Shown here: positions 12,841 through 13,698 of the stretch, one piece after another | Layout: each line of letters opens with the position of its first letter | How positions within the stretch are numbered: position 1 is the first letter of the stretch | Program-made: the position numbers and the translations under genes | From: a virus | Taxonomy: Duplodnaviria; Heunggongvirae; Uroviricota; Caudoviricetes | Reading direction: 5' to 3' (one strand) | DNA: 44,111 bases | Virus record (IMG/VR): IMGVR_UViG_2563366879_000002 | Location: 1-44,111 of that record | The notes under the pieces: model-generated | The model's input: the letters and a program-made list of their open reading frames with translations, nothing else | What the model was told of the DNA's origin: nothing | Database searches by the model: none

Positions 12841-13077
12841 TTTTATGGAGCACCTTTCTTATTGATTTCATATTGGCGAGGTAGCGGGAGTTAAGTAAAA
12901 TTGCTGCGGGTGCTTGAGGCTATCTGCCTCAGGCATGAACACCAAAAGGCAGATAGAGAAAAGCCCCAGTTAACATTACGCGTCCTGCAAGACGCTTAAC
13001 ATTAATCTGAGGCTCAATCTATGCTGAACACATGTAGGTTAGCCTCTTACGTGCCGAAAGGCAAGGAGAAGCAGGCT

Positions 13078-13233
13078 ATGAAGCAGCAAAAGGCGATGTT
13101 AATCGCCCTGATCGTCATCTGTTTAACCGTCATAGTGACGGCACTGGTAACGAGGAAAGACCTCTGCGAGGTACGAATCCGAACCGGGCAGACGGAGGTC
13201 GCTGTCTTCACAGCTTACGAACCTGAGGAGTAA
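13078..13233 (+). CDS. hokD: Hok/Gef-family type I toxin HokD (51 aa)
   Basis: MKQQKAMLIALIVICLTVIVTALVTRKDLCEVRIRTGQTEVAVFTAYEPEE matches remembered HokD; single TM helix plus periplasmic tail. Confidence 0.85.
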   Translation: MKQQKAMLIALIVICLTVIVTALVTRKDLCEVRIRTGQTEVAVFTAYEPEE

Positions 13234-13698
13234 GAGACCGGGCGAGGGAGAAATCCCTCGCCACCTCTGATGTATTATGCATCCTCAACGCACCCACACT
13301 TAACCAGTTTTGGCGAGTTTATTTTATCTGTAAATATTTTATAAAAATAATGCCCACGCACAGCATAAAACAAAAAGTATTACAGATAAAAAAGGAGCGT
13401 AATGTGCAGATTTGTTGTTTTCCATATTTACTCACCTTAATATGATTGATCTTGATAGGATTGTTATTTCAGTGGTTTTCAAATGAGATATTATGGTAAT
13501 CTGGTAGATTTTCATAACATTAAAATTTAATTTGTTTAACCGCTTTTAATAATAAGCGTTGTTTTTATCCCGGCAATCTGTTGTTTGGTTTTTATTCCAT
13601 TAAGGTGGGGACTTTACACTGGAGCCAGTTTATTTATACTTCATATGTCAGCCTGAACAACTGGCATCTGCTGCACTGCGCCATCGAGAGATTGAGAA

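Follow-up and report, generated by a model that had tools for sequence, protein, structure and literature searches.

A probably complete hok/mok/sok type I toxin–antitoxin module of the hokD/hokW lineage behind a QueH gene in a Rac-type prophage

Does a hokD gene that lies outside the relBE operon carry its own control elements? In Escherichia coli K-12, hokD of the Qin prophage stands behind relBE. In the window, by which we mean the whole 44,111-nucleotide stretch of viral DNA analysed here, a preliminary description had placed a hokD-type gene behind a QueH-like gene, expected about 240 bp of upstream leader to hold a mok frame, fold-back elements and the target of an antisense Sok RNA, and suggested that its regulation may differ from that in K-12. 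Both placements hold, by the K-12 record and by the protein family of the upstream gene. Our reading is that positions 12873-13327 form a complete hok/mok/sok type I toxin–antitoxin module of the hokD/hokW lineage, to which we assign a probability of about 0.88.

The toxin reading frame (13078-13233, + strand) encodes 51 aa and is nested in a 70-aa in-frame ORF (ORF listing). Its product matches Pfam PF01848 (HOK_GEF; E = 3e-23, 81.6 bits against a cut-off of 22), has the length of about 50 aa and the N-terminal transmembrane segment that characterize Hok/Gef toxins, and is identical to K-12 HokD; the same protein, WP_000813254.1, is common to K-12 HokD and to strain 190, a 99.8%-identical record. 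The gene upstream (12154-12840, + strand) encodes a full-length QueH epoxyqueuosine reductase (PF02677, E = 1.8e-65). From its stop codon to the hok ATG there are 237 bp, close to the length first proposed, of which about 170 nt (12908-13077) make up the putative transcribed leader. Positions 12908-13083 match Rfam RF01794 at 119.6 bits (gathering score 59, E = 2e-28), far beyond chance. The Pfam match and this score bear out the assignment to a hok/sok-type hokD locus. The mok frame, fold-back elements, Sok target and minus-strand Sok promoter foreseen for the leader are each present, none of them disrupted. The elements of the sense strand are as follows.

12873-12901, + strand: candidate hok/mok promoter from a consensus scan, with -35 TTGGCG (12873-12878), a 17-bp spacer and -10 TAAAAT (12896-12901).
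12908-13300, + strand: putative full-length hok mRNA, about 393 nt.
12908-12919, + strand: tac (GGGUGCUUGAGG), the translational activator element, forming the 5' end of the mRNA; its partner in the MFE structure of the full-length RNA is 13283-13295.
12920-12956, + strand: 5' hairpin, stem 12920-12929 with 12947-12956.
12961-12969, + strand: ucb, anti-Shine-Dalgarno box (AAGCCCCAG); pairs with the mok Shine-Dalgarno region in the closed form and with tac (12908-12915) in the open form.
13009-13012, + strand: mok Shine-Dalgarno sequence GAGG, 8 nt upstream of the mok ATG, read from the sequence.
13021-13233, + strand: mok frame, 70 aa, ATG at 13021, in frame with hok and ending at the same stop codon.
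13042-13046, + strand: dcb, downstream complementary box (GCCUC); pairs with the mok Shine-Dalgarno sequence (13009-13013) in the Rfam consensus and open structure.
13063-13071, + strand: hok Shine-Dalgarno region, AAGGAGAAG, read from the sequence; homology to K-12 hokD starts at 13064.
13241-13262, + strand: 3' stem-loop, GGCGAGGGA-GAAA-UCCCUCGCC, with a 9-bp stem and a GAAA loop (-19.9 kcal/mol, z -4.3).
13283-13295, + strand: fbi, fold-back inhibition element (CCUCAA-C-GCACCC), forming 12 bp with tac.

We placed the mRNA 5' end at 12908 because the Rfam model begins there and because of the position of the promoter, which ends 7 nt before this first base of the leader match. The mok frame begins before hok and runs into it, with a Shine-Dalgarno sequence of its own. 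The hairpin downstream of hok, described at first as lying at about 13243-13262, is real, its borders displaced by at most 2 nt. It is not a terminator, because no U-run follows it; by analogy with R1, where the role of this stem-loop has been described (PMC9841398), it would mark the 3' end of the processed (truncated), translatable hok mRNA.

For the full-length RNA (12908-13300) the predicted fold, at -157.8 kcal/mol (z -6.97), has the 5' end paired to the 3' end. In this MFE structure tac and fbi form 12 bp with one bulged C, and ucb pairs with the mok Shine-Dalgarno region (12962-12969 with 13007-13014), as in the closed, untranslatable form of the R1 model, the elements of which are described in PMC9841398. 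When fbi is removed (12908-13263), the MFE structure from ViennaRNA retains the 5' hairpin, with tac paired to the sequence just downstream; this 5' hairpin in the truncated RNA is the counterpart of the 'metastable' hairpin of the R1 model. The pairings of the open form (tac/ucb and mok Shine-Dalgarno/dcb) exist in the window and agree with the Rfam consensus structure, in which tac pairs with ucb. Forced in a constrained fold, they lie +8.7 kcal/mol over the MFE in the full-length RNA and +2.9 kcal/mol over it in the truncated RNA; contrary to expectation, the open form is not the ViennaRNA MFE of the truncated RNA. In these models a switch from closed to open on 3' trimming is plausible: its direction is as expected, and thermodynamics alone is no proof of it.

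Conservation of the fold was assessed across related loci. A scan of one genome per species yielded 61 of them, from which 30 distinct full-length mRNA regions were aligned; these come from at least seven genera, including Escherichia, Shigella, Kluyvera, Pantoea, Erwinia and Pseudocitrobacter, and are 68-97% identical to the window. When the full-length structure of the window was projected onto this 30-sequence alignment, standard pairs occupied 88.3% of cells, versus 38-43% in controls with the partners slid by 1-3 columns. Changes on both sides of a pair occur at 36 pairs, a number reached in none of 500 shuffles. Compensatory changes are present in the 5' hairpin (91.6% of cells paired; three such pairs, helix 2), in the stem of ucb and the mok Shine-Dalgarno sequence (helix 5), where alignment columns 61/101 and 65/96 covary between AU and GC, and in the 3' stem-loop (94-97% of cells paired, helices 20-21), which by these measures is a stable element. 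The dcb is invariant or nearly so across the 30 relatives. For tac/fbi, 95% of cells are paired, and no covariation was found in the 30-sequence alignment; the argument for this helix is one of conservation, because tac and fbi are both near-invariant, fbi despite the variable 3' UTR around it. Against its nine closest relatives the window mRNA has only eight private substitutions, none of which breaks a named helix.

The antisense partner was located by mapping the annotated sokW misc_RNA of phage 933W onto the window.

13029->12959, - strand: Sok antisense RNA gene, 71 nt, with a single-stranded 5' tail, a long hairpin and a U-rich tail.
13064->13036, - strand: Sok promoter, with -35 TTGCCT (13064->13059), a 17-bp spacer and -10 TAACCT (13041->13036).

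Sok is identical to 933W SokW at 69 of 71 nt, and its predicted fold has an energy of -33.3 kcal/mol (z -6.1). A simple sigma-70 consensus scan left the Sok promoter below threshold, TAACCT matching only three of the six positions of the -10 consensus. We nevertheless accept it, because it is identical to the promoter region of 933W sokW, in which a -10 mutation (primers YO-421/422) abolished antitoxin activity (PMC8621323). At the level of sequence, then, the locus contains a Sok gene that has a promoter of its own and whose RNA is complementary to the region where mok translation starts.

The Rfam match requires care in annotation. Although RF01794 is named 'sok antitoxin', the model matches the sense strand of hok mRNA, its consensus running from tac (GGGUGCUUGAG) to the hok AUG; the R1-type locus is likewise matched on the sense strand, whereas the real Sok RNA is antisense. 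Because RF01794 models the sense strand, Rfam-driven annotation would assign the antitoxin to the incorrect strand and overstate its length. In RefSeq records the locus appears as 'hokD' alone, with neither mok nor Sok. With both components absent from the records and the Rfam model on the sense strand, annotation of such loci is incomplete or misleading. Two further Rfam hits fell below the gathering score and were dismissed: a snoRNA hit (24.8 bits) and a minus-strand 'sok' hit at 12869-12967 (19.2 bits), the latter probably reflecting the near-palindromic 5' hairpin.

A module of this type is already known, through the annotation of 933W, the experiments of Takada et al. (2021) and work on hok/sok since the 1980s. 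The closest characterized counterpart is hokW/mokW/sokW of 933W/Sp5 (AF125520), with all three genes annotated and 93.8% DNA identity over window positions 12888-13306. Neither the Sok promoter nor the 19-residue Mok leader differs between the two, and mokW and hokW share a stop codon in the same in-frame layout. HokW is identical to the window Hok at 47 of 51 residues and ends in VDYESEK rather than TAYEPEE; SokW differs from the window Sok at 13020 (in the 5' recognition tail) and 12986 (in the hairpin loop). Homology to 933W starts at about 12888, which places the hok -10 within the conserved module and the -35 outside it; the 933W -35 region is unrelated to that of the window. The two also occupy different slots, 933W hokW lying near the prophage end beside a YgiW-like gene and the window module between QueH and a DUF1367 gene in the early-right region. 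Takada et al. showed by experiment that SokW has antitoxin activity, for which RNase III and Hfq are needed, that induction of the prophage makes sokW RNA vanish and HokW appear, and that deletion of hokW-sokW delays lysis and halves phage release (PMC8621323). It is for this 94%-identical locus that toxicity of Hok and its neutralization by Sok have been demonstrated.

K-12 Qin hokD (relF) presents a different picture. It stands third in relBEF, behind relB-relE and separated from relE by 71 bp, and lacks its own leader. Its DNA is 95-97% identical to window positions 13064-13320, a stretch that includes the hok Shine-Dalgarno region, the 3' stem-loop and fbi. Everything upstream of 13064, that is, 14 nt before the hok ATG, is missing from K-12: the hok promoter, tac, ucb, the mok Shine-Dalgarno sequence and start, and the Sok gene and promoter; accordingly, Rfam found no sok or leader match on the K-12 hokD locus. 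In the window the relBE-hokD arrangement is absent, QueH being upstream and the leader present in full. Because homology to K-12 begins only at 13064, K-12 hokD is the truncated derivative, and the window copy retains the full canonical arrangement. The suggestion that regulation may differ from K-12 thus stands, but its direction is restated: the K-12 copy is the aberrant one and that of the window the canonical one. This fits the published view that, apart from hokB, the hok loci of K-12 have been inactivated, hokA, hokC and hokE by insertion elements and others by genomic rearrangements that removed canonical components (PMC12214031). The window locus is a natural intact hokD that shows what K-12 hokD would have been before relBE replaced its leader, and it might be a useful control for work on hokD. 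As a discovery it matters little, given that the family, a near-identical module and wide occurrence in E. coli are known.

Plasmid R1 hok/sok (parB) and its IncF relatives have the same order of elements, promoter through fbi, with an in-frame mok, and in the full-length fold of the R1-type locus, too, the 5' end is paired with the 3' end. The two Sok promoters occupy equivalent positions (TTGCGC-17-TATCCT in R1-type loci, TTGCCT-17-TAACCT in the window), and the mRNA is of similar length (398 nt, against about 393 nt predicted for the window). The R1-type locus scores 87.2 bits in the same Rfam family in which the window scores 119.6, and shares with the window only about 65% mRNA identity and 22 of 52 Hok residues. 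Compared with R1, the window leader has an extra 16-nt hairpin (GCGUCCUGCAAGACGC, 12979-12994) inside the stem of ucb and the mok Shine-Dalgarno sequence. R1 hok/sok resides on a plasmid, and post-segregational killing is the function established for it.

By homology with R1 and 933W/Sp5, the module would work as follows. The constitutive promoter at 12873-12901 would make an mRNA of about 390 nt, which in its closed form would have its ends paired through tac and fbi and the mok ribosome-binding site hidden by ucb, so that mok and the coupled hok would go untranslated and Sok could not bind. Slow 3' trimming to the stem-loop at 13241-13262 would remove fbi, on which the leader would refold to pair tac with ucb and the mok Shine-Dalgarno sequence with dcb. 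The refolded mRNA would be bound by the short-lived 71-nt Sok (13029->12959) and destroyed by RNase III; if Sok had decayed, it would be translated into the 51-aa membrane toxin. Transcription, processing, toxicity and physiological role of the window copy are all read across from these relatives. The likeliest role, by analogy with that reported for hokW-sokW, would be to aid host lysis on prophage induction or to stabilize the prophage; for relatives, there are reports of aid to lysis when the prophage is induced, of prophage retention and of phage exclusion.

The 3' end is where the window departs from most of its family.

13302-13327, + strand: remnant of an intrinsic terminator, AACCAGTTTTGGCGAGTTTATTTT, degraded (-3.0 kcal/mol, z -0.29).

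Five to 25 nt after fbi, the loci of K-12, Shigella, Kluyvera and the hokC and R1 types have a G+C-rich hairpin followed by a U-run. The counterpart in strain B19 and K-12, AACCCGCTTCGGCGGGTTT, folds at -11.8 and -12.3 kcal/mol, and relatives with the same AT-rich downstream flank as the window retain it at -11.8 kcal/mol. The window and strain 190 both read AACCAGTTTTGGCGAGTTT after fbi, which at -3.0 kcal/mol is no better than shuffled sequence; thus the intrinsic terminator after fbi, typical of the family though not strictly defining it, was not found in the window, which has lost what K-12 hokD still has. Relative to close relatives, eight clustered substitutions of G or C by A or T (13274, 13276, 13278, 13296, 13306, 13308, 13311 and 13316) separate the window, in sequence that is nearly unchanged on either side of the 13274-13316 cluster. 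This is a rare allele: of 4599 matching E. coli records, only 24 reach 95% identity or more over 13262-13345. Because this terminator is degraded, the 3' end of the primary transcript is uncertain. Its loss need not inactivate the module, because the functional 933W locus, like the window, is also without a strong terminator hairpin directly after fbi.

The spacer between hok and the DUF1367 gene (13300-13620) is AT-rich (about 28% GC) and unannotated; within it, 13541-13567 resembles a terminator and 13613-13640 a promoter. Of the wider stretch 13297-13700, in which it lies, 1158 E. coli genomes have at least 80%. We mention, as quite a doubtful idea, that in the terminator-less allele the hok transcript may run into this spacer, as far as the 13541-13567 site or into the DUF1367 and Q genes, changing the stability of the inactive-mRNA reservoir and the timing of Hok activation. 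If this were so, Hok activation might be tied to early transcription of the prophage and not to simple decay of Sok. Whatever its effect, the allele is a small natural experiment on 3'-end formation of hok mRNA.

Degradation of the terminator is also the only hint of decay in the module, and it raises the alternative that the locus is intact in sequence yet physiologically silent or decaying, with terminator loss as the first sign of erosion. Eight GC-to-AT changes destroying a hairpin (-3.0 versus about -12 kcal/mol), in an allele found in so few records, are in keeping with this, as is the report that native chromosomal hokA (E. coli C), hokB (K-12) and hokC (ECOR24) showed no post-segregational killing (bioRxiv 10.1101/2025.08.07.668861). 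We consider it unlikely, since there is no damage to either promoter, to tac, ucb, either Shine-Dalgarno sequence, dcb, the 3' stem-loop or fbi, or to either reading frame, and 933W hokW also lacks the terminator and is functional in its native prophage. Judged from sequence, we think it probable that the window module is active; this confidence takes into account how close the module is to a tested locus, the degraded terminator and the reports that the chromosomal copies put to the test were silent.

Two other accounts fare worse. Expression of hok might come mainly from read-through out of QueH and the prophage early operon, as in K-12 relBEF, and not from a Sok-controlled promoter that belongs to the locus. 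Between the end of QueH at 12840 and the hok leader, the scan registered no site resembling a terminator, and K-12 hokD, 71 bp after relE, has no leader. However, the window has its own hok promoter, suitably spaced from the conserved 5' end of the mRNA, and a complete Sok gene with its promoter, and the same module boundaries (about 12888 and 13320) are kept behind unrelated upstream genes in other prophages, which argues for a self-contained unit and makes read-through very improbable as the main source of hok expression. That a chance ORF and a chance hairpin lie here, with no hok/sok function, is refuted to the point of negligible probability by the Pfam and Rfam matches (E = 3e-23 and 2e-28), by covariation across the family and by the presence of matches in 4731 of 5426 complete E. 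coli genomes. The complete hok/mok/sok module remains our reading of the locus.

The surroundings identify the window as a Rac-type lambdoid prophage, with the module in the variable early-right (nin-like) region. In the strain 190 counterpart the order is sieB-racR-ydaSTUV-DUF1627-DUF977-QueH-hokD-DUF1367-DUF1364-DUF1133-tRNAs-lysis-trkG, and in the window the next gene downstream of hok (13699-14298) encodes the DUF1367 protein. Genes before the module elsewhere include an alpha/beta hydrolase (O157:H7) and a hypothetical gene (strain 98218); in 'phage Rac' MN652886, a record with annotated mok and hok, several small ORFs precede it. A functional QueH-hok pair was considered and rejected, as other prophages put the hydrolase, hypothetical genes or relBE upstream of hok; QueH is one of several interchangeable cargo genes in this slot. 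QueH is carried as prophage cargo near prophage tRNA genes: adjacent tRNA-Thr(tgt) and tRNA-Gly(tcc) genes (15484-15637, + strand) lie downstream, between the DUF1133 antiterminator-like gene and the lysis genes. The window also contains the RalA sRNA (1557-1735, + strand, 223.8 bits), the antitoxin of the Rac prophage RalR/RalA type I system, and therefore a second, unrelated type I toxin–antitoxin locus.

Module matches in complete E. coli genomes number a median of two places per genome, and a recent survey found hok to be enriched in prophages (bioRxiv 10.1101/2025.08.07.668861). A phage record labelled Actinobacillus phage vB_Apl-pPE4 has a hok module at 95.9% identity. Hok loci 94-100% identical in protein to the query Mok/Hok were also seen on four contigs (L009, L012, L040 and L054) labelled as a Veillonella parvula MAG, Xanthomonas pisi (431 bp), Acinetobacter idrijaensis (275 bp) and a Haemophilus MAG; these most likely represent E. 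coli contamination or mis-binning, not horizontal transfer. In two hokC-type loci of E. coli/Shigella (L018:1408-1776 and L049:1410-1777) the 3' UTR diverges after the 3' stem-loop and fbi is missing, which presumably resembles the published disruption of K-12 hokC by an insertion element.

The mRNA of K-12 hokD is reported to undergo A-to-I editing at a low level (6%), which recodes Tyr to Cys (PMC12214031). The reported site of this low-level TadA editing is a TACG Tyr codon, and the window hok has the same TACG: the sequence around its Tyr47 codon (TAC, 13216-13218), CTTACGAA at 13214-13221, is the same as in K-12 hokD.
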